Shown here: positions 7,910-29,010 of the stretch, piece by piece
How positions within the stretch are numbered: the stretch's first letter is position 1
Layout of the letters: every line of letters starts with the position of its first letter
IMG/VR virus record: IMGVR_UViG_2703718850_000013
DNA: 32,125 nucleotides
Reading direction: 5' to 3' (one strand)
DNA from: a virus
Lineage: Duplodnaviria > Heunggongvirae > Uroviricota > Caudoviricetes
Position numbers and translations under genes: made by a program
The notes under the pieces: model-generated
The model's database searches: none
What the model was told of the DNA's origin: nothing
The model's input: only the letters and a program-made list of their open reading frames with translations

Positions 7910-7911
7910 GT

Positions 7912-8415
7912 TTATTCCTTGTCAATATTATACTTAGTAAAGCCTTGGTTAACATCTCTTTGAGTTTTCTCATAAGCCCACCGAGGAATATTTGGCGAAC
8001 TTGAATTAAGTTGATTGCGTCGATCAGAGTAACTCGTAAGTTTTTCAATCAAAGTTTTATCAGTAAAATCAAAATTAGAAGTCAATATTTCCCTAAATAT
8101 TCTAACTTCATTCTTTAATTTATTATATTCATTTGCTGCTGATTTATGAAGTGCAGCACGCTTACTTGGGTTAAGAGACGTATTTAATGCAGTTAGAATT
8201 GTAGCAGTTATGGAAATAGCTACAACAGCATTGGCTGTACTCTTGATTGCGGCAATACCACTCAAAGCGGTTAAGATTGCTAATGGTACACCGAACCACA
8301 GATTCAGCTTATCCCATCTATCAGAAACATTATAATGAGATTTAGAAGAGTACAGAGCGTCCTCTTCTATACGATGACACTCAGAAATGACTGTTTGGAT
8401 GAGCTTCTGATTCAT
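7912..8415 (-). CDS. 2TM membrane protein, SLATT-like effector candidate (start re-chosen)
   Basis: About 40-aa N-terminal region, two TM helices (LWFGVPLAILTALSGIAAI; AVVAISITATILTAL), helical C-terminal region; tightly coupled to the nucleotidyltransferase gene. ATG at 8413-8415 has a GGAG SD; the track start is a GTG two codons upstream. Confidence 0.55.
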   Translation of the reverse strand: MNQKLIQTVISECHRIEEDALYSSKSHYNVSDRWDKLNLWFGVPLAILTALSGIAAIKSTANAVVAISITATILTALNTSLNPSKRAALHKSAANEYNKLKNEVRIFREILTSNFDFTDKTLIEKLTSYSDRRNQLNSSSPNIPRWAYEKTQRDVNQGFTKYNIDKE

Positions 8416-8579
8416 AAACACTCCAACAAATCCGATTCCCTAACAGTATAACATGGTAGGGTTAATAAATACTATAGGTACTTCCCTCTGAATAGACACA
8501 ATCGGGAAGTTTCGCCGCGAACTATTTTTTTTGCATATTAAATATTTTAAATAACACAAACAAAACCTGGATAAACAAA

Positions 8580-9101
8580 TTGAACGATAGATATACAACA
8601 AACGAAATTGCAGAACGTATGGGAGTTAATGACAGTACTGTAAGCCGTGAATGGGCAAAACGTGGAATGCCACACCCAAAGAAAGCAAGTAAAAAAGAAA
8701 TAGATCAATGGATACTAATTAATATTATCCAACCATTGCGAAATACTGATGTAAAAGAACAGATTGAAAAAGAGAAATTACGCAAGATATCACTTGAAGC
8801 AGATTTAGTTGAGATTGAATTAAATATCAGTACTGAAAAGGTATTGAGTACTGATTATGTAACTCAAACACTAACTGGTTATTTTGCAGCACTACGCGGA
8901 GTACTAAGAAGTATTCCGGCATCTATCTATGTAGAACTATTTGAAAGTGAAGATGCGGATACATTGCGGATAAAACTAGAAGAAAGGATTGATGAGAAAC
9001 TAAGGGAATTAGGATCATATGAGTACGAAGAACAGCCAGAAGAAGATGATGAAGATTCTGAACCAGAGTCTGAAATCAATATTACCCCCACCGAAGATTA
9101 A
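8580..9101 (+). CDS. terminase small subunit, lambda Nu1-like
   Basis: N-terminal HTH TNEIAERMGVNDSTVSREWAKRGMP resembles Nu1 (…IRTIQNWQEQGMP) and EKEKLRK resembles Nu1 ENEKLRR; acidic C-terminus. Track start is TTG with no clear SD, so the true start is uncertain. Confidence 0.6.
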   Translation: MNDRYTTNEIAERMGVNDSTVSREWAKRGMPHPKKASKKEIDQWILINIIQPLRNTDVKEQIEKEKLRKISLEADLVEIELNISTEKVLSTDYVTQTLTGYFAALRGVLRSIPASIYVELFESEDADTLRIKLEERIDEKLRELGSYEYEEQPEEDDEDSEPESEINITPTED

Positions 9102-10938
9102 ACCATCTGAATGGTGTGAACAATATACTGTATTTCCAGATGGACCACTGGCACAACAAAAAACTAAATTATTTTCATTTCAAGTAGAACCCCTAAACGC
9201 CACAGTAGATCCATCAGTACAGAAGATCTGTTTAATGAGTAGTGCACAATTACTCAAGACAACAATACTACAAAATGCAATGCTTTACAGGATGGCAAAT
9301 AAACCCTCCCATATGATATTTGCGGGTAGTAGTGGTAGTACTGTGAAAAAGTTCCGTACTGGTAAATGGATGGATACTATTAATGCGTGTCCAAACCTTC
9401 AAGCATTAATCACTGACAAATCAGATAAGAATGCAGTAAACGATCTACACACTCAACAGAACGTTGACGGTACTAAGACATACTTTGTTAACCTCAATTC
9501 TAGCCAGTCCCTACGCTCGCTTACAGTTCCTGCAATCTTCATTGATGAATTATCAGGTGTAGATCCAGAACAAGATGAGGGCAACCCCCTATCACTCATA
9601 GAACAGCGTGCAACTCAGTTTGGTAAGAACTCCCTGATCGTGATGGCCTCCACACCATTAGTACAGGACGATATGATCTGCCAGCAATGGGAACTCTCAG
9701 ACCAGAGACATTTTCATGTCGTGTGTCCACATTGTGATCATGACCATATTTTAGAATGGGAGAATATAAAGTTTGAATGGGTGAAGTTCAACGAACGACG
9801 TAATGCACCAGAACCCACTACAGCACGCCTACACTGTCCAGGATGTGATGAAGTAATCACTGAAGGGCAACGTGCACGGATGGTTGCAAAAGGTTACTGG
9901 AAAGCACACAGACTGCATGTGATGGGTTTCAGGGGATACCATGTTAATAGACTATATTCACCGATTACTACTATTGAGAAGATTGTTGAAGACTTTAAGA
10001 ACTCATGGATAAACTTTGAAGAACAATCTTTCTATAATAACGTACTCGGTTTACCGTGGGTAGATAAGAATAATATTAAAGAAGATCTTACAGTACTGGA
10101 AAACTTACGCGACTTTGATTTAGATGTAAAACATATTCCAGATAATGCACTTGGTATTGTACTGGCATGTGACCAACAGATAGACCGCTTAGAATGTAGT
10201 ACTATTGCATTTGATGAAAAGAATATATGGGTTCTGGACCACCGTATGTTTTATGGTGTCGATTGTACTAAGTATGAAGATAAGGCATATACTGAACTAC
10301 TTAATTATAGTAAGAGTATATTTAAAACCACTTCAGGTAGAAAAGTACCAGTACTGAGATCCTTTATTGATAGCTCAAACGGATCTGCAACCAGTTCCAT
10401 ATATCGCTTTTGTTCTTCCAGTGGGGGACGATGGCATGCAATTAAGGGTGCAAACACACAGACTGGTCCCATCACGAAGGATTCCACAACGGCAGGACAT
10501 CAACTGGTTAATATTAATACTCAAGTACTGAAGCACCAGGTTAAGAAGTTATTACGACAGGCATGTGAAGGGGGAGAGTATAGTACTAATATACACTTCA
10601 GTCATTCCCTTGTCGATGATTACTTCCTCCAACTTACAGCAGAAAAACTAGTACGAAAAGGTTCAGTGATGGTATGGGAGAATCCAAATGGAGAGCGTAA
10701 CGAATGTCTCGATACGCTCGTCTACTCATTAGCAGCGATTGATCACAAGATACAGGCACTTGGTGCACAACCGTATAGGAAGTTGCGAGAGTATAGAGCT
10801 AAACAAAAAGAACTAAATACTAAAGTAGAAGAATCCATAAAAACTAAAGCAGAACAACAACCAGTACAGAAAGAGAAGCAGAAATCAAAACCTAAGAAAA
10901 AAGGACTTTCAGCACTTAATAATCGTAACTGGTTTTAA
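9019..10938 (+). CDS. terminase large subunit, GpA-like
   Basis: 639 aa, immediately after TerS, with cysteine/histidine clusters (CPHCDHDH; CPGCDE); AGGA SD before ATG 9019; overlaps TerS by 83 nt (alternative ATGs at 9046/9049). Confidence 0.8.
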   Translation: MSTKNSQKKMMKILNQSLKSILPPPKIKPSEWCEQYTVFPDGPLAQQKTKLFSFQVEPLNATVDPSVQKICLMSSAQLLKTTILQNAMLYRMANKPSHMIFAGSSGSTVKKFRTGKWMDTINACPNLQALITDKSDKNAVNDLHTQQNVDGTKTYFVNLNSSQSLRSLTVPAIFIDELSGVDPEQDEGNPLSLIEQRATQFGKNSLIVMASTPLVQDDMICQQWELSDQRHFHVVCPHCDHDHILEWENIKFEWVKFNERRNAPEPTTARLHCPGCDEVITEGQRARMVAKGYWKAHRLHVMGFRGYHVNRLYSPITTIEKIVEDFKNSWINFEEQSFYNNVLGLPWVDKNNIKEDLTVLENLRDFDLDVKHIPDNALGIVLACDQQIDRLECSTIAFDEKNIWVLDHRMFYGVDCTKYEDKAYTELLNYSKSIFKTTSGRKVPVLRSFIDSSNGSATSSIYRFCSSSGGRWHAIKGANTQTGPITKDSTTAGHQLVNINTQVLKHQVKKLLRQACEGGEYSTNIHFSHSLVDDYFLQLTAEKLVRKGSVMVWENPNGERNECLDTLVYSLAAIDHKIQALGAQPYRKLREYRAKQKELNTKVEESIKTKAEQQPVQKEKQKSKPKKKGLSALNNRNWF

Positions 10939-10950
10939 TAAGGAATTAAT

Positions 10951-11427
10951 ATGAATCCACGTAAGACGGACTTAACTAGCCCGATCTTTATTGGTGAAAC
11001 TATAGTACTAGACTTCCCATCAACAGCAACGATTAAAATCATTGATGCAAAAGGTAATGAGCAAGAATACTTTCCAAATTTACCCATTGATACATCTCAA
11101 TGGGTAGCTGGTGTCAGTACTGCAATTATTAGCGATGGTAGTATGTCTGTACAACTTTTCACTGTTAAAGATCCACTTGAAGCAGCAAATAAAATAAATC
11201 AGTTACAGGAATTGATCGATGAAATTGATATGGTTATTGAATCCAAGATTCTTGGGGGTGGTACTACACAACTTACCATTAATAATAAAACACTAGTAAC
11301 AGAAAGTGCTGAAGTACTTTACCGTATGCGACAAGTATATGCAAAGAAACTTGCAGATGAAAAGGCACGTGTACGAAAAGTTAAGACGGGCAACCCCATC
11401 AAATCAATTACACGTTTTACAAGATAA
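10951..11427 (+). CDS. hypothetical head protein (158 aa) between terminase and portal
   Basis: ORF in the position lambda gives to W; no motif recognised. Confidence 0.45.
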   Translation: MNPRKTDLTSPIFIGETIVLDFPSTATIKIIDAKGNEQEYFPNLPIDTSQWVAGVSTAIISDGSMSVQLFTVKDPLEAANKINQLQELIDEIDMVIESKILGGGTTQLTINNKTLVTESAEVLYRMRQVYAKKLADEKARVRKVKTGNPIKSITRFTR

Positions 11428-11436
11428 GAGGGGAAT

Positions 11437-12429
11437 ATGTTTAATTTTAATTTTAGAAAGGCAAAGGAACAGCCAAAAGAAGAACCAAAACTATATATTG
11501 GTAAGGCAAAAATACGTACTGAACCAGTACTTGGTAATTTAGGTATTGAAACCAAACGTTCCATTTCTTCCATCGGTAACGGTAACGCAGCCGCACAACT
11601 TGGTACATTTGGTGCAGTTGGTAAGAGTGGCTCGATCAATGCCGTAATTAACCGTGTATTGAACACGGCAGTACTACAAAGTCGCCAGCTTAGTATGAGT
11701 AACCCAATTCATAAGAAGTATATTGCACAGAATGCCAGTAGTGTATGTGGTGCAAATGGTATTACGTATCGTCCATGTGTTCACGTTGCTGAAGATGACA
11801 ATGTTAATAATGATATTAATAAACGTCTCGCCGATGCGTTCTACTCATGGTGTGAAGACCCCGCACGTTTTTCCCTAAATGGAAAACTTGAAATGTCCAA
11901 ATTCCAGTCACTGGTAGAGAAGACACGTTCAATTGATGGTAGTTGTTTTATTCGTATCCATCCTGGTATGAAGATTGAAGTACTAGACAGTACTGTAATT
12001 GATACGAAAGGTAATCAATGGCTAAGTAATGGTAACTATCGTTCAAATGGTATTGAGTTTGAAAAAGGCACTGGTAAACCCGTTGCTTACTTTCTAACAC
12101 AATATGACCCCGTATCGTACTCAGTTAGTACTGAAGCAGAACGTGTACCCGCAGAAGAGATCCTTCACTTATTCAGTACTGACTATCCAGAACAGCAACG
12201 CGGCATTCCCGATATATTTTGCGGTACTGGACTACTGGCAGACCTGGATAAATTCATGAGGGCGTCAATCAAGACGCGACAATTAGCAGCGGAAAGCATG
12301 GGTTTTATCACGAATGCGTCACGTGATGCATCATTTGAAGATATTGATGATGATGACGATTCTGATGTAGATGAATACCAGGTTGCACGTATGGAGGGTG
12401 GAGTACTGTTAGAACTTCGTGAGGGTTAA
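11437..12429 (+). CDS. portal protein, N-terminal segment (ends at an in-frame TAA)
   Basis: Position after TerL; weak resemblance to lambda gpB from memory; followed in the same frame by 12433..12948. Confidence 0.6.
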   Translation: MFNFNFRKAKEQPKEEPKLYIGKAKIRTEPVLGNLGIETKRSISSIGNGNAAAQLGTFGAVGKSGSINAVINRVLNTAVLQSRQLSMSNPIHKKYIAQNASSVCGANGITYRPCVHVAEDDNVNNDINKRLADAFYSWCEDPARFSLNGKLEMSKFQSLVEKTRSIDGSCFIRIHPGMKIEVLDSTVIDTKGNQWLSNGNYRSNGIEFEKGTGKPVAYFLTQYDPVSYSVSTEAERVPAEEILHLFSTDYPEQQRGIPDIFCGTGLLADLDKFMRASIKTRQLAAESMGFITNASRDASFEDIDDDDDSDVDEYQVARMEGGVLLELREG

Positions 12430-12898
12430 GATGTGAAGTCACTCAGTCCATCACAAACATTCGACGCACTACAGGAATTTCTAGATAACCAGTTGATTTT
12501 CATAGGGATGTCACTCGATCTTACACCACAGACGTTAACAGGTTCGACCGCAGGGGCATCATTCAGTGCCTCGAAGTTAACAGACAAAATTCAGCAAAAT
12601 ACATTTCTTGCAAAACAAAACAACCTGGTTAAGTCAGTACTTCAACCTTTGTATATTAAGTGGCTCAAGAATGAAATGCTAAATAACCCGATGTTGAAGG
12701 ATTTGCCATTTAGTAAATTTACTGAACTAACTGAATGTAATTTCATTCCACAACGTCATATTAGTCTAGACCCACTGAAAGATTTACAGACTGAGATTCT
12801 CGCAATGGAAAATGGATTAAAGAGTAAAGAACAAATAATTTCTGAGATGGGCTATTCACCAGTACTAACCCATGAGCAGATTACTAAGGAAGAAACAG

Positions 12899-15014
<2,116 letters not shown>

Positions 15015-15015
<1 letters not shown>

Positions 15016-15452
15016 TGCGAACTTCAGACTACACAATACGGAAATTTTTGATTAATAATCTCAGTACTTTGGTAAATCTTCAATATCAATCGAGAGCAAC
15101 GGTAGACGACAAACCAATGTTATACATCGGTGACAGTACTGTAACACGTTCACGCATTCAAAAAGCAAATACATTAATTAATGGTCAATTAATACCACGT
15201 GGGATTAATTATCTCTGTGAATTTAGAGTGGACTTTGTAGCAGTAGGCGAAAATTATAAACTTGCATCAGATGAAATTAGTAAAGTGATTGATGCAATCT
15301 ATGCAAGTGGTTTTATTAATGAATTGAACAAACTACTTCCAATGGATGTTTTCAATGTTGTTCTGGAAGAGAGCTTAATGACTACCCAGGCCGAAGCAAC
15401 TAATACGATGTATGTGCATACACAAACTATATCTTTTAGCTATGGGGAATAA
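15015..15452 (+). CDS. hypothetical neck / tail-terminator-like protein (145 aa)
   Basis: Position only. Confidence 0.4.
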
Positions 15453-15455
15453 TTT

Positions 15456-17138
15456 ATGGCTTTTATTACTAACAACACAAGTGTATGGATTAACACCGAC
15501 ACATTAAACAGTGACCCCAAATCGAAGGGATTTAAAGAAGTACCAGAATTAAGCGGGTTCCCTTCATTCGGTCACAGTACTGCAACCCTTGCTATTGAAA
15601 CATATGACTCTGAATACATCGAAAAAGTAGCAGGTGATAGCACATATGGTGATGTCACTATTACGGTTAACTGGGTTCCTGCTAAACATAAGTTTCTTGA
15701 TGACATCGTAAAAAGTCGCCAATTAGTACAAATGAAGGTAGAGATCCCCGATGAAGGACAGAATGACCTTACGGTTAACTATGCACTTTATAATGGTTAT
15801 CTGGCTTCTGTATCCACCAGTGGTGATTATGATTCTGTTACTTCCCGTTCCTACGTATTCACCCCAAACGAACAACTTTCTTCGGGTATTCTTGACAGTA
15901 CGATAGTCCCTCTAAATCGCGGAGACTGGGGCGTAGGTGCAAACGGTATTGAGTTTCCAAGTTATCAGGGGCGTGACGGTAATGCTTTTATTAAGATCCC
16001 TGGTGCAGGTTCACCAACAGGGACAGATGTACTCGGTATTAATAACCTTGATTCGAACTTTGGTACACAATTGGTTATCAGTAAGACAGGTACGCCAATA
16101 ATTAACGTGCGTAACTATGGTGCATCTATGGGGGCATGGTACAAGGTCTATACCAGTGCTGATAAACCTACACTGACAGAACTGGGTGCTGCATCAAGTG
16201 CATCCCTTGCAGACTACGTACCGATTACCCGTACTATCAATAGCAAACCACTAACTGCTAATATTACACTACTGGCTTCTGATATCGCTGATGTATACAG
16301 TAAGACGTATATAGATCAGAACGTAGTCCCAAAAGTATTCCAGTTAAACGGTCATGCACTATCCGGTACGGCATTAAACTTAGTTGCCGCAGATATTCTT
16401 GATGTGTATTCACAGACTCAGGTTGATACTTCATTTGTTAAAAAAACAACTACTGTTAACGGTTTAAGTCTTTCCCAGAATATAACACTGACAGCCGCAC
16501 AACTCCCAGATATGGCAAGTATTGTTTTTACTAATAACACATATGTACCAAAAACATACTTAATCAACAATAAGCCATTATCAGGAACTAACATTCAATT
16601 AGTTGCTGCTGATATTCCTGATGTGTACTCACGTACCCAGTCAAATGATCTATTTGCACTACGTATCACCACTATTAACGGGTATGCTCTTAACAGTAAT
16701 ATAGTACTGAATTTTGATGATGTAGGAACATATTCAAAGAAACAGATCGATGACAAAGACAAGGTTCTGAAGGAAGATATTGATACGAAGGTAACAATTG
16801 TAGATGATATTCTTAAACTAAATACCCTTGTAAATAATTCATTAGAAATAGATTTGAGTGATAGTAAAACTACATTCACCGTGACTCTATCACAACCAAC
16901 GTCAAACTTCTCTGTACTAAATGCAAGTGGTAATGACAAAAAGAGTCAAACATTTCAGGTGCTTATTAAGCAGGGTACAGGGGCAAATAAAATATCCTGG
17001 CCTACAAACATTTTATGGTCTTATGGGCGTGTTCCAGTATTAACCTTTACAAAAGATTCTACTGATGTATTTCAGTTTGTCACAGTAGACGGGGGTAGTA
17101 CTTGGTACGGCTCTCTACTAATGGCAGATATGAAATAA
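15456..17138 (+). CDS. tail-tube-domain protein with C-terminal tail-fibre-like tandem repeats
   Basis: N-terminal region (…ITVNWVP…YALYNGYLASVSTSGDYDSVTSRSYVFTPNE) is homologous to the 158-aa protein at 20048 (…LSVNWKPG…YSIVNGYISSDVVGGDFDAVATREFVMTITGE); the C-terminus carries about five 35-aa repeats (xNGxxLSxNIxLxAADIxDVYS…). Confidence 0.6.
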   Translation: MAFITNNTSVWINTDTLNSDPKSKGFKEVPELSGFPSFGHSTATLAIETYDSEYIEKVAGDSTYGDVTITVNWVPAKHKFLDDIVKSRQLVQMKVEIPDEGQNDLTVNYALYNGYLASVSTSGDYDSVTSRSYVFTPNEQLSSGILDSTIVPLNRGDWGVGANGIEFPSYQGRDGNAFIKIPGAGSPTGTDVLGINNLDSNFGTQLVISKTGTPIINVRNYGASMGAWYKVYTSADKPTLTELGAASSASLADYVPITRTINSKPLTANITLLASDIADVYSKTYIDQNVVPKVFQLNGHALSGTALNLVAADILDVYSQTQVDTSFVKKTTTVNGLSLSQNITLTAAQLPDMASIVFTNNTYVPKTYLINNKPLSGTNIQLVAADIPDVYSRTQSNDLFALRITTINGYALNSNIVLNFDDVGTYSKKQIDDKDKVLKEDIDTKVTIVDDILKLNTLVNNSLEIDLSDSKTTFTVTLSQPTSNFSVLNASGNDKKSQTFQVLIKQGTGANKISWPTNILWSYGRVPVLTFTKDSTDVFQFVTVDGGSTWYGSLLMADMK

Positions 17139-19996
17139 TGAAACCACACAATATAGATAATGCATATCAAATGATCGAAGGTCAGTTTAAGTTCTTGGCA
17201 CGTAATACTGGCCTTACAACAAATAATAAGACACAGCACTATGTATTAAACCCAGATAATGTACTTGCAAACAACCGTCACTTTATTGCAGAAACTGGAT
17301 GGGAGGCACAGCCGGAAGGTGATGCAACTACAGAAGGTCAAAGCCTCCAGATTCTGGGGGCAATATATGTGTATCAGGCAACTAAAGACCCTTTCTATCT
17401 ACAGAAGGCAAAAGAGTACTTTAACGCATATCACAAGGCGTTCTATCGTGGTGCACCATTTCCAGATCCACCGAGTTCATCACTACGCTGTAATTGGATT
17501 TGTAATGGGAAGGCTCCAGTACTGGCACACTACCCATTAGATCCAGAATATCCGACGCATGGCGGTTTTAAAGGGACACTATTCACATGGGCTAATGGCC
17601 TTACAAAGATCCCACATGGTGCACCACACTGGGGTGAATACCTCGATGCAGTATGGTTTGCCTTCCCTAAGCGTGCGGGACTTGGCTGGAATCAGGTTAA
17701 CGCAACTGCTTATCTGTGGCTTGCCAATGAAGACTCAATAGACTGGGACACTAAAGCACCAACCTATGACGTCGAATGGATCATTGATCGTACCGGACGT
17801 AAGGTAGACTCAAACGGCACTGTACTGCAATCCGGTCTAACTGGTCAGGAAGGTACAGTACAGTTAAAGAATAAAACCATTACTGGTGAATATCGTTTTA
17901 ACTATGCAACCCGAAACCCTGTAGAACATGGCGGGTATATGTTCAAGCGTAATGAACGCTGGCATAACCGACCTGTACACGTACCGATTGATAACTATGG
18001 TTCTTTGGACTTCTCTGATAATGCATCAGATGCCGAATTATGGTTTTGTCAGGCAGCCAAGCTACTTTGGGATATTACAGGAGAACGCCAGTATTATCTT
18101 GCGTGGCAATGTGCACTATTAACCTGTTATGGATATTCAGATATTGACAAGTACGATATGTTCTTTCGTAAATCTACTATTGCCGTAACACCTTTTACTG
18201 ATGGTATTTCATACGACTACTTCTACCCAAGTGAGCAAGTAGCATCATATTCCCGTGATGCACAGGGTTATATTGTAATAAATCAAAGTGCATCCGCACA
18301 GACGATGTTAGAACAACAATCAATCTGGTTTAAATTCAATAATAACTCAAAGTTTCATATTGAATATGGTGGTGTTGATAATACCAGTACTGCAATGTCA
18401 GTTTCTGCTGAAGTCACAGTGAATAAAACAAAAACAGAAGAAGGTGCAATTGATTATCGGTGTGGTCTACCAATGACTAATCCAGATGGCTCTATCACTA
18501 CAATGGACATTCCTATGAATCGTTTTACACGTGTAATGAAACCAGATGGCTCTAATTATATGACTGCTGATCTACGTATGATCGCCGATTATGGAGATAA
18601 CACGGTAACAAACTTTGAATATCAGAGTGGAGTACTTGGAAATTATTACGATAACGTCGTGTCTACAACAATGGATGGTGACGGGGGACAGGTGGTGGGG
18701 TTTTGGATATTCACACCAGAGACTGCCAATATTCAATCTTTTACCTATCGTTCATATGATGATGATTTTAACTTTCGTATAAGTGATGATAATAAATGGC
18801 GTTGGTGGGCTATGCTCCCTGCAACAAATGGTGAATGGGTTACAAAGACTTTTACTATTGCTGACTTCAAACTAAACGGTTATCAACCCGATCACCCCGA
18901 AATTGAAGATCCAGATAACCCAGGAGAATGGATTCAACCTGATCCTATTCCCGCAAGCCCAGTACTAACGAACCGTGAATCTTTCACACTGCTACTTGAT
19001 GCAGATCCAGTAAATGGTGTGAATGGGAAGATTGACTGGTATTGTATTAATGATTTGCCTGCGATGTATACAGATGGTGGGACAGGTGATTATTCGGTCA
19101 CAGTACTGCTTACGTTTAACGACACAACTGGTAATGGTTACACAGCCCGTTTAGGTGACTGTACTATTAAGGATTATATGCTAGATAGTCTTGCGTATAC
19201 TCCGGGTTTAATTCCGTTCTCTAACATTACCGATCCCTATGCCCAGTTATATTCTGGGTGGCGTGGTCTACCGTATCCGGGTTATCAACTACCGGCGATC
19301 TGGTGCTTTAAAGGAACAGAAATAGATCATACTCGCTTAAATAACAGTATCAATTTTCTATATGATTCTCAGGCATGGTTTACAAATAAATTTAAACCAT
19401 CATTACCAGGACCATGTGCACAGGCTTTCGTATGGAACAGACAGGACGCTTTAGCATATGCCCCTGATGGTAAGCCAGATCAATTCATAATGCAGCACTG
19501 GTACGCCGAAGCATGGAGTGGATACGAACCAAGGGCTTTCTTTGGTGGGTGTGATGCAGTACATGAATTATGGTCACGACAAGACAGTACTGTAATACCT
19601 CCTAAACTAATATCTTTCTGCCAGAACTGGATGAACTATCTAAAATGGTTCATGAAAAATAATGGCGGTAAAGCTCCTACCTATTTTAGGGATAATGGTT
19701 CTGTAGAATATGATGGCTTTACCCCTCATATGTCCGGTCTATGGTTAGCAGGGGCATGTATGATGGCTATCGCCGGATATCCAGATCATGAGCTAATTCA
19801 ATTACTATTTGATGAAATACAACTTAACTATGCAGTTATTTCACCAAATCATGTAATGAATGGTACATGGCCTGCGTCAATCAGAACAGGTAATGAAACA
19901 ACTGCCGAAAACAATAGTATGTTCTTTGGTTTCTATTCGGGTGAACTTTTACGCGGATTGGGGCTATATGTGCATTACTACAATCTTCATAAATAA
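17138..19996 (+). CDS. large virion-associated protein (953 aa), possible carbohydrate-active tailspike or depolymerase
   Basis: TAATG overlap with the upstream gene (track start 17102 is TTG); aromatic-rich (many W/Y); no catalytic motif identified. Confidence 0.5.
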   Translation: MKPHNIDNAYQMIEGQFKFLARNTGLTTNNKTQHYVLNPDNVLANNRHFIAETGWEAQPEGDATTEGQSLQILGAIYVYQATKDPFYLQKAKEYFNAYHKAFYRGAPFPDPPSSSLRCNWICNGKAPVLAHYPLDPEYPTHGGFKGTLFTWANGLTKIPHGAPHWGEYLDAVWFAFPKRAGLGWNQVNATAYLWLANEDSIDWDTKAPTYDVEWIIDRTGRKVDSNGTVLQSGLTGQEGTVQLKNKTITGEYRFNYATRNPVEHGGYMFKRNERWHNRPVHVPIDNYGSLDFSDNASDAELWFCQAAKLLWDITGERQYYLAWQCALLTCYGYSDIDKYDMFFRKSTIAVTPFTDGISYDYFYPSEQVASYSRDAQGYIVINQSASAQTMLEQQSIWFKFNNNSKFHIEYGGVDNTSTAMSVSAEVTVNKTKTEEGAIDYRCGLPMTNPDGSITTMDIPMNRFTRVMKPDGSNYMTADLRMIADYGDNTVTNFEYQSGVLGNYYDNVVSTTMDGDGGQVVGFWIFTPETANIQSFTYRSYDDDFNFRISDDNKWRWWAMLPATNGEWVTKTFTIADFKLNGYQPDHPEIEDPDNPGEWIQPDPIPASPVLTNRESFTLLLDADPVNGVNGKIDWYCINDLPAMYTDGGTGDYSVTVLLTFNDTTGNGYTARLGDCTIKDYMLDSLAYTPGLIPFSNITDPYAQLYSGWRGLPYPGYQLPAIWCFKGTEIDHTRLNNSINFLYDSQAWFTNKFKPSLPGPCAQAFVWNRQDALAYAPDGKPDQFIMQHWYAEAWSGYEPRAFFGGCDAVHELWSRQDSTVIPPKLISFCQNWMNYLKWFMKNNGGKAPTYFRDNGSVEYDGFTPHMSGLWLAGACMMAIAGYPDHELIQLLFDEIQLNYAVISPNHVMNGTWPASIRTGNETTAENNSMFFGFYSGELLRGLGLYVHYYNLHK

Positions 19997-20007
19997 AAAA
20001 AGGAAAC

Positions 20008-20026
20008 GGGTAACAGGACGTTACCC
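20008..20026 (+). terminator. stem-loop GGGTAAC-AGGAC-GTTACCC just upstream of the major tail gene
   Basis: 7-bp perfect stem, 5-nt loop, A-rich before and AT-rich after; may be an attenuator or RNA stability element. Confidence 0.35.
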
Positions 20027-20047
20027 TAATTAAATAAGGAAATTAAA

Positions 20048-20524
20048 ATGGCTTTTAATCGAATTTTCGCAGCGAATAACGTTGTAGTAGAAATTGCAGA
20101 AGCACCAGCAGGTGGTGGTCAGGCAACCACTTTTACAGTAATTGAAGAAGTTGCAGCTTTCCCGGCAGCAGCAGGTGCTGAGTCTACAATTATCTCAGTA
20201 AATACATTTGGTAAGCAGTACGCACAGAAGCTTTTAGGATCTCGTTCTGTGCCAGATCTAACCCTATCGGTGAACTGGAAACCAGGGGCAGTAGGTCAAG
20301 AGATGTTAGTTACCGCAGCTCAAAAACAGACGCTTATGCAGGTAAAAGTAACTTATTACGAAAACATCGCTGATACCGATGGAGTGGGTTATTACTCGAT
20401 AGTTAATGGCTATATTAGTTCTGATGTTGTCGGTGGCGATTTTGACGCTGTAGCAACACGTGAATTTGTTATGACAATCACGGGCGAACCTGTAGCAGTT
20501 GGTGAAATTGCAGCAAAACCATAA
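20048..20524 (+). CDS. major tail (tube) protein, lambda V-like position
   Basis: 158 aa, immediately upstream of the chaperone/frameshift pair and the tape measure gene; shares its fold-level motifs with the N-terminus of 15456..17138. Confidence 0.65.
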   Translation: MAFNRIFAANNVVVEIAEAPAGGGQATTFTVIEEVAAFPAAAGAESTIISVNTFGKQYAQKLLGSRSVPDLTLSVNWKPGAVGQEMLVTAAQKQTLMQVKVTYYENIADTDGVGYYSIVNGYISSDVVGGDFDAVATREFVMTITGEPVAVGEIAAKP

Positions 20525-20556
20525 TATAAAATAATCATAATAAGGAAAAAATACAC

Positions 20557-20847
20557 ATGGATCTATCTAATCTAATGACAGCAATTGGTGTCAAAAAACA
20601 TGCCTTTGAACTTGCTCCGGGGTTTACTGTTTATATTCGTCTTCCAGCTATTTCTAAGTATAGTGAATGTAGTGACCCGTACACTACAATCCATTACTGT
20701 GTAGTTGATGCCAATGGTAAACAACTTTTTAAATCACCAGAACAGGTAGAGAGCGAAATTGACATGGTTTATCAAATCAAACTTAATACCGAAATCACGC
20801 GTATTTTTACCGAAGCTATGAATATTGAAGAAATTGAAAAAAAGTAA
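20557..20847 (+). CDS. tail assembly chaperone (G-like)
   Basis: 96-aa ORF between the major tail and tape measure genes, ending in a slippery heptamer. Confidence 0.6.
   Translation: MDLSNLMTAIGVKKHAFELAPGFTVYIRLPAISKYSECSDPYTTIHYCVVDANGKQLFKSPEQVESEIDMVYQIKLNTEITRIFTEAMNIEEIEKK
20838..20844 (+). promoter_or_regulatory. -1 programmed ribosomal frameshift site A_AAA_AAG
   Basis: The heptamer sits in the X_XXY_YYZ register of the 20557 frame (codons GAA AAA AAG TAA); the -1 frame is open from 20838 through to the stop at 21170. Confidence 0.6.
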
Positions 20848-20879
20848 GGGGCGATCCGTTTCTTAAACTTTCTCTAAAA

Positions 20880-21170
20880 ATGCTGATGACAAAAGGGTGT
20901 GGTGTGGAAGATCTCTGCACCATGCCCTTTTCGCTTTTTATCTATCTATTTGTATATGACACTTTTGTAGAACCAAATTCTTCCAGAATTGAACAGGTAA
21001 GACATACCGAAATACTCCAGGCTATATGGCTCAGTACTGGGAATATTAAGAAGGAAGACTTAAAGAAATTCAGTATCACAGAATTGGATTCTCTTAATAT
21101 CATCAACAATAAGACCATTAAAGAACAAGCCGAAGAGAGAGAAACGGATCGCCGAAGAACAGAGAGCTAA
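20880..21170 (+). CDS. T-like extension, probably expressed as a G-T fusion by -1 frameshifting rather than from its own ATG
   Basis: In the -1 frame relative to 20557..20847, with that frame open upstream across the slippery site. Confidence 0.5.
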   Translation: MLMTKGCGVEDLCTMPFSLFIYLFVYDTFVEPNSSRIEQVRHTEILQAIWLSTGNIKKEDLKKFSITELDSLNIINNKTIKEQAEERETDRRRTES

Positions 21171-21199
21171 CATGTTAAACTGGATGGGAAGAAAATAAT

Positions 21200-23461
21200 A
21201 TGGCAGGGAATAAACAACAGATGATTTTTGAAATCACTGGTGATGAATCTGGGTTACAAAAATCTTTAAAAAGTGCTGGCAATGGACTTGCCGACTTTGG
21301 TGATCGTGCTGGTGGTGTATTTGGTGGTATTAGTGGTGGACTAAGCACAATGGCAACTGGTCTTGGTGGTGTTGGTAATGCGGCAACCTTGGCAATTACA
21401 GCTATTACAGCACTGACTACATATACAATTGGTCTTGCAAACGAGATCAACGCATTGACCCGTACAACCGGACTGAGTGCCGAGCAACTTCAGCAGTGGT
21501 CAGGAGCATTCAAAACCATAGGATTATCTATGGAAGAAGTTGGTTCGATTAACGAAGCAGTGATGGACCAGCTTGGTATTGCGTCTGCTGACGGTTCTGG
21601 TGTTGGTGCCGACTTAAAAACATTCGGCGTAGATGTAAATAGCCTAATACCGACATTAAAACAGGCAGATGGTGGTTTACAGGCATTGTCAAAAGTCTTT
21701 TTTGATATGAAAAAGAATGGTGCAAATCTTGCCGAAATAACAAATATGATCAACGCCCTCGGTGGTGATGCTGCAAAACTAATACCGACATTCAACTCTT
21801 TTAACAGTGAGATTGAATTTAATAACTCTCTTGCAGCCCAGAACGTAGCAATGACTAATGAACAGGCAAAAACATTTGATCTGTTAAGTCAGAATACTTC
21901 AGGTCTTGGTAGTGGACTGAAAACTCTTGCATTTGAAATTGTTACACCCCTCATTGATATTTTTAATGGACTCGTAAAAGCCTGTAAGGAAATATATCAA
22001 TGGTTTGACAACCTCAAAACAAAAGCAGTTGAGTTTATTAATTCATTCTTTAACTGGGATTCAAATAATACGATCATACAGTCGTTATACGATCAGGTAA
22101 TTAAATTCTATGACATGATCCGTAATGTAGGCTCAAAGATTGGCCTTGAATTACCCGAGTTTACACCAGAGCAAATAGCAAAAGGACGTAAACACGTACA
22201 GACAGCAGCCGATGCAGTTTTCTCACCACTAGGCCCAGGTATTGGTGGTCTTGCTGCCCTTGCCCGTGGATATTCTCAGGAAGACTATAAACCAACCACA
22301 AAGGCATATACAGGAACGACAAAAGAGCGTTCTAACTTTGATGATGGTAAAGCAGGGGAAGAAGCGAAAAAAGCCAGTGATAAGGCCGCAAAGGATCGTA
22401 TTCAGGCTGCCAAAGTACTGGAACAGACTATGAATGGTATTGCAGGTAATGGTGCTGCCCTCCAGCTACAGCAATTTAATAAGACCCAGGATGAAATAGA
22501 ACAACGCATTAAAACAAGTGCAACTACTCTCGGTAAAACTGAAGCTGAAAAGACTGAACTATTAAGAAAGCAGACTGATTCACGTAAACGCCTGTATAAA
22601 GAAATGGTTGATTCAATGCTCACCGAAAGTGACCCACTTAAACTTGCCCAGAATATTTCAGCAATTGGTGGTTCTATGTCAGGGAAAGACCTTAATTCAG
22701 TACTGGCAGGTCAAAACGAACGTATGGGACTTAATCAAGATCCATTCAATATGAGTGCCGATCAGAACACGCTCGATACATTAGCAACAGAAGGACAGGC
22801 CGAATTAGCACTGAATCAAAGTCTGTATGAACAGAAGTTATTAAGTTATCAGGATTACCAAGATCGCATGGTAGCAATTCAACAATCTACTACAGACAAA
22901 ATGAGTCAGGCTAATATTGATGCCCAGCAAAAGACACTTTCTATGTATGCAACGGGTGCTCAGGATCTCGGTACTACTCTTGCAGGTGTATTTGGTGAAA
23001 GTAATGCTATGGCAAAAGCTGCATTTGCAATGAGCAAAGGGATCGCAGTTGCCCAGTCTATTATCAATATTCAGCAGGGTATTTCAGAGGCTATGAAACT
23101 TGGATGGCCTATGGGGATTCCAGCAGGGCTTAAAGTAGCTGCCGAAGGTGCCAATATTGTCAGTACGATTAAGGGTACAAAGATTGAAGGGCAGGCACAT
23201 GATGGCTGGGACTCACTACCGAAGACTGGTACATATAATCTTGAAAAAGGTGAACGTGTTGTAGGTAAATCTCTGAACCAGGACTTGACACAGTACTTGA
23301 ATAATAAGGGTGGTGATAAAGGCGGTGATATTAAAATTGATGCCCCTTTAATTATTCAGGGTGCCGGAGAACTCACAGATTCAAAATTCCAGAGTATGTG
23401 TGATAAACACGCCGATACTATCACTCAGGCAGTACGTAAAAGCCAACAGAGGAACGTCTAA
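21200..23461 (+). CDS. tail tape measure protein
   Basis: 753 aa, Gly/Ala-rich hydrophobic segments near the N-terminus, long helical body, directly after the chaperone pair. Confidence 0.8.
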   Translation: MAGNKQQMIFEITGDESGLQKSLKSAGNGLADFGDRAGGVFGGISGGLSTMATGLGGVGNAATLAITAITALTTYTIGLANEINALTRTTGLSAEQLQQWSGAFKTIGLSMEEVGSINEAVMDQLGIASADGSGVGADLKTFGVDVNSLIPTLKQADGGLQALSKVFFDMKKNGANLAEITNMINALGGDAAKLIPTFNSFNSEIEFNNSLAAQNVAMTNEQAKTFDLLSQNTSGLGSGLKTLAFEIVTPLIDIFNGLVKACKEIYQWFDNLKTKAVEFINSFFNWDSNNTIIQSLYDQVIKFYDMIRNVGSKIGLELPEFTPEQIAKGRKHVQTAADAVFSPLGPGIGGLAALARGYSQEDYKPTTKAYTGTTKERSNFDDGKAGEEAKKASDKAAKDRIQAAKVLEQTMNGIAGNGAALQLQQFNKTQDEIEQRIKTSATTLGKTEAEKTELLRKQTDSRKRLYKEMVDSMLTESDPLKLAQNISAIGGSMSGKDLNSVLAGQNERMGLNQDPFNMSADQNTLDTLATEGQAELALNQSLYEQKLLSYQDYQDRMVAIQQSTTDKMSQANIDAQQKTLSMYATGAQDLGTTLAGVFGESNAMAKAAFAMSKGIAVAQSIINIQQGISEAMKLGWPMGIPAGLKVAAEGANIVSTIKGTKIEGQAHDGWDSLPKTGTYNLEKGERVVGKSLNQDLTQYLNNKGGDKGGDIKIDAPLIIQGAGELTDSKFQSMCDKHADTITQAVRKSQQRNV

Positions 23462-23474
23462 GTAAATACAGTAT

Positions 23475-23497
23475 GCCCACATTCATGTGGGCTTTAT
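23475..23497 (+). terminator. hairpin GCCCACA-TTCA-TGTGGGC followed by TTTAT, after the tape measure stop
   Basis: 7-bp GC-rich stem, 4-nt loop, T-rich tail; probably a partial terminator inside the tail operon. Confidence 0.4.
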
Positions 23498-23508
23498 AAG
23501 GAAAATAT

Positions 23509-24063
23509 ATGTTTAATAACTCTCTAATAAGTGATTTTATACTTTCTGATAATATCCCCCAATACCAAAACAAAACATGGTCTGGTGAGGTAATTACCCG
23601 TATTGTCGGAACACAGTACTTCAGCATAAGTTTTAAGGTTACAACAAATAAAAAATACAGAACCGATTTAACAAACTTTCTTGCACTCTATTCTAGTGGC
23701 AGACCTTTTGATATGTCTCTTGGTTGGTGGGGCGATTATTCAGGCAATCAGGCGACGGGTATACAGGTAACAGCAGCCCGTACTGCCGGAGCTACATCTA
23801 TTCAGACCAATACTAATAACCTTTCCCCTGGTGATTTAATTCAATTCTCAGGACACAAAAAACTCTATCGTGTTATTGCCCGTAGTGGAACGACTCTGAA
23901 TATCTACCCTGGACTGATCCGAAATCTCCAGATAGGGGAAACTGTAAAATACGATAATCTAATGGGTTCTTTTATTCTTACACCTGCTAACTCTACATAT
24001 GATCTACCAAGTACAAATATTATTGAGATGACAATTACGGCAACTGAGAATATAAGGGGGTAA
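23509..24063 (+). CDS. minor tail protein (lambda M-like position)
   Basis: AAGGAAA SD; gene order after the tape measure gene. Confidence 0.45.
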   Translation: MFNNSLISDFILSDNIPQYQNKTWSGEVITRIVGTQYFSISFKVTTNKKYRTDLTNFLALYSSGRPFDMSLGWWGDYSGNQATGIQVTAARTAGATSIQTNTNNLSPGDLIQFSGHKKLYRVIARSGTTLNIYPGLIRNLQIGETVKYDNLMGSFILTPANSTYDLPSTNIIEMTITATENIRG

Positions 24064-24064
24064 T

Positions 24065-24709
24065 ATGGCAATTCCAAACGATGTACTAAGTAACCCAGAA
24101 TTAGTAAAGTACTGGAATCTAATGAGAGGTGATAATAAGTCAGTTCTTACAGAAAGGGAATTATACCAGTGTGGAATCATGGTAAAACTGATTGATCTGT
24201 TACCTCCTACAGGAAGTAATTTATATCTTACTGATGCAGTAGTAGAACAGAATATTAATGGCATTGTATATAAACCAATTCCAGATCTAATTGATTCATC
24301 CTTTGCGAACTATGTAGAAAAGAATCAGATTAATAATACCGGTACTACGTTTAAGATTAGTAACGTAAGCCAGGATTATCTTTCCCTTGCTTTAAGAGGA
24401 TTGTGGAAAGATGCCAAAGTTAATATCTGGATGGGGATCGTTAACCCTGCAACAGGTGCACTTCTTTACCGTTATCGTATTTTTAGTGGGTATATAGATT
24501 ATTTTAGCAGTGATTTTTCTGTAGATGGAACTAACACACAGAATGAAACCACTGTTAATCTTAATTCTATATGGAAGAAATTAGACCAGACACAACGTCT
24601 ACTATCAAGTACATCAATTCACCAATCAACCCACAAGGGTGATAAGTTCTTTGACCTAATCGGAATACTAAATAGTTCAGAACAGTTTTGGCAAGCGAGT
24701 AAAAAATAA
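24065..24709 (+). CDS. minor tail protein (lambda L-like position)
   Basis: Gene order; TAATG coupling to the next gene. Confidence 0.45.
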   Translation: MAIPNDVLSNPELVKYWNLMRGDNKSVLTERELYQCGIMVKLIDLLPPTGSNLYLTDAVVEQNINGIVYKPIPDLIDSSFANYVEKNQINNTGTTFKISNVSQDYLSLALRGLWKDAKVNIWMGIVNPATGALLYRYRIFSGYIDYFSSDFSVDGTNTQNETTVNLNSIWKKLDQTQRLLSSTSIHQSTHKGDKFFDLIGILNSSEQFWQASKK

Positions 24710-25098
24710 TGAATGGATTTATTACAGAATATCTTAGTACTCTAATCGGTCAGCCAATTGTATACGGTGAAAATGATTGTCATATCATGTCGCTGACTGT
24801 TATTGATATGCTTCTTGGTACAAATTACAGGGACGAAATCTATCAGAGATATACGTCACCTACTGGCGGTCGAAAGTACGCAAAAGAACATTGTTCATAT
24901 AAATCACTAAATGCCCTATGTAATGATCTGGGTACAAAACAAGTAGAACCATTTGATGGGGATATCCTAATTACTGGCTCCCAATCTACTGTGTACTGGA
25001 GAGGCAAAGTAATCATTTCAATCGATGGTGTTTATGCAGTAATGAAATATGAACCAATAGAAAACAATTATAAAATTTATAGATTCGGAGGGAAATAA
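24709..25098 (+). CDS. minor tail protein (lambda K/I-like position)
   Basis: Gene order; a possible Cys/His pair (ENDCH) is not enough to call a peptidase. Confidence 0.4.
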   Translation: MNGFITEYLSTLIGQPIVYGENDCHIMSLTVIDMLLGTNYRDEIYQRYTSPTGGRKYAKEHCSYKSLNALCNDLGTKQVEPFDGDILITGSQSTVYWRGKVIISIDGVYAVMKYEPIENNYKIYRFGGK

Positions 25099-25099
25099 C

Positions 25100-28000
25100 A
25101 TGGCAGTAGCAGCCGTATTAACAGCAGTAATAGCAGGTGCATCAGCCGCCGCCGCTGCCTATGCAGCCGTAGGTCTTGCTGCATCTATCGCTATTGGTGT
25201 TGGTGTAGCAGCACTATCTTACGTTGCATCCTCCCAGATGATGCGTGTTGGAGATCAGGGGGTAAACTATCCCAGTACTGGGACGGTTAACTCTCGAAGT
25301 ACTTCACCCAGTACTGGGATACCGATTGTATATGGCGGTACTAATAGAAGCCTGACCGAAGAATCATTTGTTAAGGTAGGTTCCATCGTCGTATGGCAGA
25401 ACGTCTATAAGGGACAAAGTAACCAGCTATGTACAGTACATGCTATTAGTATCGGGGAGATCGGACGTGCTCCAGGTGCACAATCTGGTGCCGTAATTAA
25501 ACAGGTATACTTTGATAACAGTCCAATCTTGCTGGATGATGCCGAAATAACCAGTGAGGGTATTGTTTCTACATCCCTTATGCGTGAGAAGTATCGTAAC
25601 TTCCTCCAACTCGAAATTCGTTTTGGAAAGCCGTCTTATGGTGGTTCTATGACACTTGCCCGGCAATATGGCGGGTCTCGCTGGACTGATGAAATGCGTG
25701 GTGATGGATTAGTACAGGTTTGTTCGGTTATCCGTAAGACTAATGGTAGTCTGACCGATGGTATTTTAGTGAATCAAAACTATGCACTTTCATTGGAGAT
25801 GAAAGGACGTCTAATTTATGACCTTACTGATAACATTCGTAAACCCTCCAGTAATCCACCAAGCCAGTTATATGACTTTATCACAAATAATGAATTTGGT
25901 TTCAACACTGATCCTAATGATATTGATATTGCATCATTTCGTAATTGTGCAATGTACTGTAAGAATAATGAACTATATTCAAATGGTGCTATTGCCTATG
26001 ATAAGTCATATAAAGAAAACCTTGAAAGCATCTTGTCTACATTCGGTGGTGTAATATATGAATCGAATGGCATTATGTATCTCACCGTAGATACTGCTGA
26101 TGTTCCACTATATCATTTTGATGAAAAAAACATTCTCGGTACTGTGAATATCACAACTGGTTCTAATACGGATTATGCGAATACATTCGATGTGACCTAT
26201 ACAAACCCAGGCGGGGATTATTCAGAAGATATTATTCGTTATCCAAGTGATACGCTTACAAATGAAACAGTGGTACGGGATGGTTTAATCATTAAAAAAG
26301 ACCTTAATCTAAAATGGATTCAGGACAAAAAACAACTGGCTAAAATGGCTAATACCGAGCTATTAAAATCTAAGTATGTTCTTAATAGTATAACTTTTAA
26401 CACATACGTTACCGATCTCACAGTCTACGATGTTTTTACACTCAGTTTCAAAGAAGCCGGATTTGTTAATAATAAGTTCCGTGTAATACAACGTACTGTA
26501 CCGATGACCGTAGATAAGACTGGTGTCGTACAGATTACCGCTATAGCCTATGCGGACGGCATATATCAGGGGAAAGACCCTGGACGATTCCCACTGGACG
26601 GGATCACAAATCTACCAAACGCGACATACGTAGAACCTCCATCAAACTTGCAGGTACAGAAACTCGGTGCAACCGTTAACGGCAATGCCGTGCTTATGAC
26701 ATGGGATTTAAGCCAGGATTCAAGCGTACGGGGTTATAAGATTAGATATAAACGCAGTGATTCGAATACATGGATCTCGATTGGTAACGTAGGACAGTAC
26801 ACCACAGAGTTTCAGATACTGAATCTAATCCACGGTGTTAAATATGATTTTGGTATTGAGGCGTATAACACTCTCGGTTATTCATCTGAGTTAGTTGCAA
26901 TTTATAATCAAACGCCACAGGTGATTTTTGCCCTACCAAAGATTACTAATCTTGATATGACTAACGATAATATGGGCTTGAACCAGACTTATTCACAAGA
27001 TTTTATATTCAGATGGGATGATCAAAGTACTTTGCCAGTAAATGGAAAACGATTCTCTGATTTTTTCAAATATTATGAAATTCGTGTGTATGACCGTTAT
27101 CGTACATATATTAAGTCGTACTTTACAACGGACTTTAACTGGACATATACCTTTGCAATGAATCAATCTGATGGACTTAACAGATATCGTGTAATTGGTA
27201 TTATTGCCCACGGTCACGGTACTGGAATTTATTCAGAAGAGGTACAGATTGAAGTAAGTAACCCACAGCACCCCCAATTACTTGGTGTACGTTTGCGTAA
27301 TGGCTATGATAATGTGTTCTTAGAATGGGATGAATCAAACGTACCAGACTATTCTGGTGTAGTGTTCCAGTGTGCTAAGGATGAGGGTTTTAGTTCAGAT
27401 GTTCACTATTTCAGTTCTTCTAACCGCTTCTCTGCTTCATTTGGGATAGAGGATGGATCGTGGTTCGGACGTCTTGCAGCATATGATGTAATGGGACAGG
27501 ATGAATTAGTATGGTCGCCAACTATTGGTTTTAATCAGAATACTAAAGTTCCGTACTCAAAGCTAAATGATGATGTTGTAGATGAATTACTGAATTCAGA
27601 TGTTGCCACAGGCATTATTGAGAAACATATTGTTGATGACCTTGGATCACACTGGCAGGTTCAGGTGACGAATAACGGCAACGTATCAGGTGTATCACTT
27701 GCTAATGACGGGAAAAACTCAGCATTTACAGTAATGGCAGACCGTTTCAGTATAATCAGTACCGACAGTGCTAAACAGACTGATAAGGTATATCCGTTTG
27801 TAGTTCAGAATGGTAAGACTTATATCAATAGTGCGGTCATTGGAGACGCGAGCATAAACACAGGGCAGATAAATGACCTTGCTGTGACGCGGGCAAAAAT
27901 TCAGATAGCAGCAATCGACTCAGCCCGCATAGCCCAGGCCTCAATCCTTAATGGTCATATAGTTAATGGGGTTATCGACTCAGCAAAAATATCCCAGCAA

Positions 28001-28983: not shown

Positions 28984-28985
28984 AA

Positions 28986-29010
28986 GGGGCATTAATGCCC
29001 CTTTTTATTT
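28986..29010. terminator. bidirectional intrinsic terminator GGGGCATTAATGCCCC + T-tract
   Basis: Perfect 16-bp palindrome flanked by an A-run upstream and a T-run downstream, between convergent genes; it overlaps the endolysin stop codon. Confidence 0.7.

Follow-up and report, generated by a model that had tools for sequence, protein, structure and literature searches.

Gene content of the element and position of AGTACT

We analysed a 32,125-bp stretch of DNA (IMG/VR record IMGVR_UViG_2703718850_000013; hereafter the window), a serine-recombinase prophage-like element of Escherichia coli with a GC content of 37%, compared with 51% in its host, along whose backbone the palindromic hexamer AGTACT is strongly over-represented. 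Its gene set is siphovirus-like (terminases, portal, capsid, tail and lysis genes). A near-identical copy is inserted between yggS and yggR in the chromosome of E. coli N61; a large serine recombinase is encoded at the left end of this copy, which also contains an IS3 insertion. Other E. coli strains carry relatives inserted in ybhA (element L005) and yegD (element L111), and further relatives occur in Klebsiella, Edwardsiella and metagenomes. A megablast search of a phage collection returned no close DNA relative (the best match there to the large terminase subunit, TerL, was 34% identical), no family member was matched in that collection, and neither a plasmid search nor a first scan of a genome collection gave a match.

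The head and packaging module (Table 1) runs from the small terminase subunit (TerS) through a gpA-type TerL, a head-tail joining gene, portal, a protease-capsid fusion and two small genes to the start of the first tail gene. The tail module encodes major tail and fibre-like proteins, a tape measure, distal tail genes like those of RcGTA and phiJL001, and a tail tip fibre, while the right arm encodes an 88-amino-acid (aa) protein, a lysozyme (minus strand), a GIY-YIG nuclease, a basic 197-aa protein, a 110-aa protein and a holin-like protein. Three complete elements (L004, L005 and L111) have a core in common, consisting on the left of the recombinase, a 49-aa protein, TerS, TerL and the head and tail genes, and on the right of the 88-aa protein, lysozyme, a GIY-YIG nuclease of 142–151 aa, the basic 197-aa protein, a 106-aa protein and the holin-like protein. 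This shared core contains no recognisable replication, repressor, anti-repressor or methyltransferase genes, and the only DNA-acting enzymes conserved across the family are the serine recombinase, the terminase and the small GIY-YIG nuclease.

Table 1 Features of the window and GCGC-free zones of related elements (window coordinates unless an element is named)
Feature	Position	Strand	Remarks
Left-arm backbone segment	196–1572		AGTACT at 196, 841, 1096, 1178, 1234, 1503 and 1567; 4.4 per kb
Cargo island	1777–8421	mostly minus-strand genes	GC 31–34%; 2 AGTACT (4126, 4150)
Type I CBASS oligonucleotide cyclase (SMODS)	7133–7909	minus	
Type I CBASS 2TM SLATT effector	7912–8421	minus	
Head and packaging module	8580–15581	plus	38 AGTACT, ~5.4 per kb (highest density)
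TerS with N-terminal helix-turn-helix (HTH)	8580–9101	plus	phrog_57, E = 8e-20
Tail module	15456–28657	plus	22 AGTACT including 15576, ~1.5–2.5 per kb
Right-arm core genes	28717–31131		3 AGTACT (29883, 30149, 30757)
SegE-like GIY-YIG nuclease, 147 aa	29473–29916	plus	Pfam PF19835, E = 3.8e-17
Very basic 197-aa core protein, family-restricted	29913–30506	plus	5' end overlaps the GIY-YIG 3' end
GCGC-free zone, element L005	1990–37600		
GCGC-free zone, element L111	9080–42300		
GCGC-free zone, element L004	7560–44150		

Excess of AGTACT over compositional and codon-based expectations

A sequence-only reading of the window had estimated 60–70 copies of AGTACT against about 10 expected, about 50 of them between 8.6 and 25.3 kb and about two in the cargo island, in at least two codon registers. 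Exact counting bore out each of these estimates: the window contains 71 copies, compared with 9.41 ± 2.73 (maximum 17) in 100 dinucleotide-preserving shuffles; 55 complete copies fall within 8580–25300 with one more straddling its end (25298–25303); and the island holds exactly two, against 1.2–1.5 expected, so that it shows no enrichment. By register, 33 copies are read as Val-Leu (xxA-GTA-CTx), 29 as Ser-Thr (AGT-ACT) and five with Tyr, while four are intergenic. The same reading had assigned the excess to the structural module. It is indeed high there, but is not confined to it, as the whole backbone is enriched, with seven further copies in the left arm and six between 25310 and 30762. A boundary between cargo and core, also proposed from the letters, is marked by the word, given the unenriched island with its lower GC and the CBASS pair inside it. 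In the N61 copy there are 11 copies of AGTACT in the left arm (1.0 expected), 34 from TerS to the major capsid protein (2.1 expected) and 26 in the tail (4.2 expected).

When palindromic hexamers in the window were ranked, AGTACT (6.6-fold) was the sole strong enrichment, followed by GTGCAC at 2.65-fold. The base preceding the word is C in 38 of the 71 copies and the base following it is G in 40; the octamer CAGTACTG was found 26 times against 0.4 expected.

Codon usage does not account for these numbers. Within the core genes, 61–62 copies were observed, compared with 16.5–16.7 ± 3.6 after synonymous-codon shuffling (z ~12) and 9.8 ± 3.0 after shuffling of codon order; CAGTACTG occurs 25 times against 1.7 under synonymous shuffling. 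AGT-ACT spells 27 of the 57 Ser-Thr pairs, where codon usage predicts ~11%. The dipeptides themselves are inflated (Ser-Thr 57 vs 38.8 expected, Val-Leu 57 vs 37.3), and their reversed counterparts are not (Thr-Ser 26, Leu-Val 31). The excess over both kinds of codon shuffle therefore means that codon choice and amino-acid sequence have both been bent towards the word. On the sense strand, the two constituent pentamers are equally enriched over synonymous shuffles (AGTAC 92 vs 39.8, GTACT 96 vs 44.0). Pressure at the DNA level, as initially suspected, is thus supported by survival of the synonymous shuffle, by the use of two registers and by the equal enrichment of both pentamers; neither an observed/expected ratio (o/e) near 1 nor a sufficient codon-usage explanation emerged from the exact counts and codon shuffles. 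Under a maximal-order Markov model AGTACT appears ordinary, because the pentamers AGTAC and GTACT already hold the signal, and we judged this to be the wrong null.

Spacing of the word in the window is Poisson-like (coefficient of variation 1.04), and neither phased or regular spacing nor an orientation skew was seen (110 AGTAC vs 117 GTACT on the plus strand). In the family, AGTAC/AGTACT reaches a density of one copy per 170–500 bp. The capsid gene of the window has 12 AGTACT. The copies at 13456 and 13561 belong to a Glu-rich internal direct repeat within the protease-capsid fusion gene (13436–13610) and represent two copies of one duplicated unit.

Distribution across the element family and its hosts

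With a TerL profile, 80 loci were recovered from IMG/VR and 18 from genomes, the latter belonging to Pseudocitrobacter, Pseudescherichia, Serratia, Mangrovibacter, Phytobacter, Yersinia, Leclercia, Enterobacter, Buttiauxella, Pluralibacter, Rouxiella, Escherichia and Atlantibacter; named hosts of the 18 genome loci span at least 15 genera, all within the Enterobacterales, and the GC content of all family loci lies between 36 and 50%. Measured over ~12 kb from TerL onward in 91 loci, the o/e of AGTACT was at least 5 in 69 loci and between 3 and 5 in eight more (77 of 91 at least threefold), with a median of 9.8 and a maximum of 18.5. Leclercia tamurae provides an example, with 74 copies against 4.7 expected, and eight diverse elements pooled contain 391 against 32. 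AGTACT was the top palindromic hexamer in all seven enriched elements that were ranked.

The comparison with host DNA called for by the sequence-only reading showed no excess in 50 kb of E. coli flanking sequence (AGTACT 2 vs 4.2 expected; AGTAC 40 vs 43). The AGTACT excess is therefore a trait of the element family and not of the host.

The pentamer AGTAC as the underlying unit

That the palindrome AGTACT is enriched stands, but it is not the basic unit. Across the family AGTACA, AGTACC and AGTACG are also enriched (1.8–4.4-fold), and AGTAC[A/C/G] is in excess in 88 of 91 loci (median 2.7-fold), compared with an o/e of 1.08 for [C/G/T]GTAC[A/C/G]; GTAC without a flanking A or T stays at ~1.0–1.5. 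Around GTAC, the preferences for a 5' A and a 3' T are near-multiplicative (odds ratio 2.3), and AGTACT therefore acts as an overlapping pair of AGTAC copies in inverted orientation. It is the asymmetric AGTAC, often as CAGTAC and on either strand, that forms the unit. In class A sequence totalling 377 kb and containing 1226 AGTACT, inverted or direct AGTAC pairs show no preference for any other spacing.

Lineages differ in how the unit is extended. Flank preferences include CAGTACTG, AAGTACT and AGTACTA types. In a TerL subclade that we term class B (L011, L038, L041, L044, L111 and others), the approximately threefold excess of AGTAC[A/C/G] is kept and the palindrome is nearly absent, with one AGTACT against 27.2 expected in four elements and none against 13.6 in the complete 33-kb element L111; the latter instead contains AGTACCG 46 times against 3.2 expected, and this non-palindromic class B word is present on both strands. 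Class C (L034–L036) favours CAGGACT instead. As both AGTACT-rich and AGTACT-free element types live in E. coli, a reader of the word would be encoded by, or co-evolve with, the element. Neither trait is present in the outgroup loci, whose TerL is ~40% (L013) or 34–38% (L027 and L028) identical to that of the window.

Strict avoidance of GCGC and other palindromes

The build-up of AGTACT had been described as the reverse of the palindrome avoidance usual in phages, and the same genomes indeed avoid other palindromes. GCGC is absent from the window (28.7 expected under the dinucleotide model) and from its core genes (18.7 expected from synonymous shuffles), as it is from 86 of 91 family loci, L042 being an exception. 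The complete elements L005 and L111 lack it throughout, cargo included, against 39 and 46 expected. The GCGC-free zones (Table 1) follow the element borders; in the N61 copy, GCGC occurs solely inside the IS3 insertion, with ~8 per kb in the host flanks. This strict avoidance may be mechanistically linked to the co-occurring AGTAC excess.

Depletion of CGTACG and GGTACC is family-wide (o/e 0.0–0.3). CATG is low in every class (~0.5–0.6) and in the E. coli host flanks (0.47), and most classes are also poor in CTAG, with an o/e of 0.36 for the window and of 0.10 for the host. The depletion of these four words resembles the usual avoidance of restriction-type sites, here next to an excess of AGTACT. 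A literature search on over-representation of AGTACT or CAGTACTG, or on GCGC avoidance, found nothing relevant.

Turnover of individual sites

Codon alignments of TerL, portal and capsid genes from six elements contain 69 site columns, of which 55 have the word in a single element. Since the sites align with ungapped hexamers in other elements, they arise by substitution. Between the tail of the window and the homologous tail of L005 (68% nucleotide identity), three of 23 AGTACT sites are common (13%), compared with 14.2% conservation of all hexamers. The family is highly mosaic, and its head and tail modules have different histories.

Gains and losses were estimated by tree parsimony over 13 related loci (~79–95% identical), with 179 hexamers of the same composition as controls. 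AGTACT was gained 91 times and lost 117 times, whereas control hexamers averaged 13.7 gains each; loss per occurrence was 0.166 for AGTACT and 0.251 for controls (~0.66-fold). Gains came from AGTACC, GGTACT, ACTACT, AGTAAT, AATACT, AGTTCT and others, affected every position of the word, and included transitions and transversions as well as synonymous and amino-acid-changing substitutions. A ~6.6-fold gain combined with a ~0.66-fold loss reproduces the approximately tenfold standing excess, and gain above and loss slightly below background therefore maintain a steady-state density while positions turn over. These findings show a DNA-level, element-specific and orientation-independent process by which any substitution that creates the word is more likely to become fixed.

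Comparison with known iterated words

The closest known counterpart is HIP1 (GCGATCGC), a hyper-abundant cyanobacterial palindrome whose function is described as unresolved (PMC4390886, PMC5861425). HIP1 is reported to co-occur with a cognate DNA methyltransferase (Elhai 2015, PMC4390886), and its sites are reported to be conserved between genomes above background (Xu et al. 2018). Both words are short palindromes in which a hexamer core extends to an octamer; both are enriched more than tenfold, intragenic, used in several frames beyond codon usage, and lost or replaced in some lineages. The differences are that HIP1 pervades whole bacterial chromosomes, while AGTACT belongs to a mobile element and is not in excess in the E. 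coli flanks; that HIP1 sites are conserved, whereas sharing of AGTACT sites is at background (13% vs 14.2%); and that a methyltransferase accompanies HIP1, whereas none was found among the window proteins. The AGTACT unit also behaves as an asymmetric pentamer.

Uptake sequences (DUS of Neisseria, USS of Pasteurellaceae) are 9–12-bp chromosome-wide words that the competence apparatus recognises in bacteria capable of natural transformation. They serve as a 'self' tag and are presumably kept up by biased transmission, which favours the number of copies and not individual sites. They resemble AGTAC in being short, asymmetric, present in both orientations at about one or more per kb, intragenic, of consequence for peptides and subject to turnover; AGTAC differs in its length of 5–6 bp and its restriction to a prophage family. 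Chi and KOPS are likewise over-represented short words, which protect or mark 'self' DNA by modulating a DNA-processing machine, but these are strongly orientation-skewed and AGTAC is not (110 vs 117). Chi itself (GCTGGTGG) was rejected as an explanation, with one copy in the window and counts that do not fit, as were LexA half-sites, whose flanks and counts do not fit either. In E. coli, Dcm methylation and Vsr-dependent very-short-patch (VSP) repair leave the methylation-site palindrome CCWGG in excess, again through a DNA-level process; VSP repair predicts depletion of T:G neighbours and a single type of transition, neither of which is seen for AGTACT. Restriction-site avoidance, a feature of phages and other mobile elements (e.g. 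PMC4176335), is finally at work in the same genomes, which avoid GCGC, CGTACG and GGTACC and, in class B, AGTACT, but the window and most of the family show a ~7–18-fold excess of AGTACT. We regard AGTACT as one of the iterated genomic words, in this case carried by a mobile element.

A possible recognition function encoded by the element

The explanation that we favour, tentatively and at somewhat less than an even chance, is that AGTAC is the recognition site of an element-encoded, trans-acting DNA function and that selection acts on copy number. AGTAC is favoured on both strands over the backbone of ~33–36-kb, 36–44% GC Enterobacterales elements with a large serine recombinase. The word is made continually by point substitutions at about 6–7 times the background rate and lost slightly more slowly than background; newly acquired cargo and the host chromosome are without excess. 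In the model, the element-encoded function would bind, nick or modify DNA that carries AGTAC and thereby give it a 'self' mark used in packaging, in protection, or in replication and recombination, so that the number of copies, and not any individual copy, would be under selection. In class B, an added restriction-type pressure would have removed all palindromic AGTACT and left the AGTAC excess.

Three gene products are candidates. One is the GIY-YIG nuclease, whose orthologues in L005 and L111 are 45–50% identical and which might read either AGTAC or GCGC. The 197-aa basic protein, for which no family match and no PDB profile match was obtained, is a candidate DNA-binding partner of this nuclease. 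TerS is another candidate sequence reader, its HTH giving a weak match to the excisionase type.

Several results weigh against a recognition function under copy-number selection. Searches with Pfam, PHROG, NCBIfam and PADLOC found no methyltransferase, Vsr or known sequence-specific binder among the window proteins, and Pfam found no methyltransferase, Vsr or known DNA binder among the class B left-arm proteins. The AlphaFold model of the 197-aa protein was unusable (predicted local distance difference test score, pLDDT, 39). Site conservation hardly exceeds neutral, and functional sites would often be conserved more, as is reported for HIP1. Module history explains the approximately threefold difference in density between head and tail no less well than function does. 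Sequence alone, moreover, does not separate selection on copy number from a molecular drive that favours copies.

A more elaborate version, which we regard as doubtful, would make AGTAC and GCGC the two words of a self/non-self identity system, with AGTAC as a 'self' tag, GCGC as the target of an element-encoded nuclease and a retargeted weapon in class B. The reader of AGTAC would then be a nickase, binder or modifier, possibly the GIY-YIG nuclease with its 197-aa partner; the element nuclease would destroy GCGC-bearing host or rival DNA, the host carrying ~8 GCGC per kb; and the AGTACT-purged clade may carry a weapon retargeted against AGTACT-rich rivals. If true, phages would possess an identity system of a new kind, encoded in sequence.

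Phage genomes are usually depleted of palindromic restriction-type sites, whereas here the build-up even alters amino acids; it points to a new function with sequence specificity for the DNA of the element itself. HIP1-like words have been unexplained for decades, and a ~35-kb inducible element with few candidate genes offers a more tractable system, with digestion by ScaI or RsaI as a direct experimental handle on the word. The combination of no GCGC with an AGTAC excess also delimits these elements, and the border between backbone and cargo can be placed with it at single-gene resolution.

Alternative explanations

Molecular drive, in which word-carrying alleles are preferentially transmitted in recombination between related elements with no benefit to the organism, comes next in our estimation, although we consider it rather unlikely. 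Word-bearing fragments might be better protected, packaged or used as donors, much as uptake sequences accumulate through biased uptake and recombination. Dispersed, orientation-independent, intragenic copies that turn over, with high gain and little positional conservation, are what such a drive would leave; the mosaicism of the family and the different histories of its head and tail modules also speak for it. No mechanism or factor was identified, however, and a sequence-specific reader would still be required, so that drive overlaps with the recognition function proposed above; the amino-acid-changing gains also suggest a sizeable advantage per site.

Methylation-linked biased mismatch repair of the VSP style, with a methyltransferase and repair pair that turns near-cognates into AGTACT, is improbable. 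Elhai reportedly proposed such repair for HIP1 and described in 2015 the same pattern that we see in the window: the core is palindromic, it extends to an octamer, and single-base deviants cluster at the outer positions. For the transition neighbours AATACT/AGTATT, however, there is no depletion, the o/e being 0.93 in the window and 1.16 in class A, and the T:G to C:G route accounts for only six of ~40 single-step gains, the rest being other transitions and transversions. Among the window proteins there is no methyltransferase or Vsr domain, host DNA is unaffected, and the unit is an asymmetric pentamer.

Two further explanations strike us as quite improbable, to the same degree. The first invokes binding sites for a conserved Enterobacterales host protein, such as the nucleoid-occlusion factor SlmA, which phage DNA would titrate or activate. 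SlmA is conserved across the Enterobacterales, to which all named hosts of the family belong, and its 12-bp site, which we take to be GTGAGTACTCAC, has AGTACT at its centre, a G/C next to the core and GT/AC ends. On this presumed consensus, the full site GTGAGTACTCAC occurs 0 times in the window, as does GAGTACTC; the rarest flanks are G at −1, seen in 8 of the 71 copies, and C at +1, seen in 2 of them, with no GT/AC preference further out; and sister elements within E. coli have lost AGTACT or favour a different word, which is not what a conserved host reader predicts. The second regards the word as the inherited signature of a low-GC, word-rich reservoir host, with the elements of E. coli, Klebsiella and other hosts as recent immigrants, in keeping with an element GC 10–20 points below that of the host. 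Members with 40–60% TerL identity occur in many high-GC genera, all with the trait and with private sites; gains are still ongoing in a recently diverged group; the 120 closest TerL relatives include, where their source is named, none from a low-GC genus such as Proteus or Providencia; and cargo that lies inside the element does not show the excess.

That the excess merely follows from preferences of structural proteins for certain codons, codon pairs or dipeptides is barely credible. Ser-Thr and Val-Leu are common and AGT, ACT and GTA are preferred codons, but synonymous shuffling yields 16.5 ± 3.6 copies against 61, one hexamer is favoured in two registers, the reversed dipeptides (Thr-Ser 26, Leu-Val 31) are not inflated, and the class B word lies on both strands. 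RNA-level or codon-level causes in general are ruled out by the shuffles together with this use of both strands.

Cargo island, remnant elements and the portal gene

The cargo island contains a type I CBASS pair (Table 1), and its remaining six genes gave no family match. About 88 complete E. coli genomes match over only the first 891 bases, comprising TerS and the beginning of TerL, with an identity of 99.8%. One of them, L112 (E. coli 357900, NZ_CP038859.1), was examined; there the remnant comprises the cargo island, TerS, a truncated TerL and an adjoining IS3, and looks like a domesticated defence island. Because these genomes hold only a remnant of the same element, the presence of TerS in the 88 genomes is uninformative on TerS as a reader of the word.

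An in-frame TAA at 12427–12429 divides the portal gene of the window into 11437–12429 and 12433–12948, where the N61 copy reads CAA (Gln); the portal of the window thus appears to be either broken or affected by a sequencing error at this position.

An intergenic gap of the cargo island contains a perfect 8-bp tandem repeat (TATGTTCT, 16.6 copies, 4893–5025), and the related element L011 carries 13 copies of a 7-bp repeat, TGAGTAA, at 7043–7135, upstream of an OLD-family nuclease. Both look like phase-variation-type simple repeats beside defence genes.

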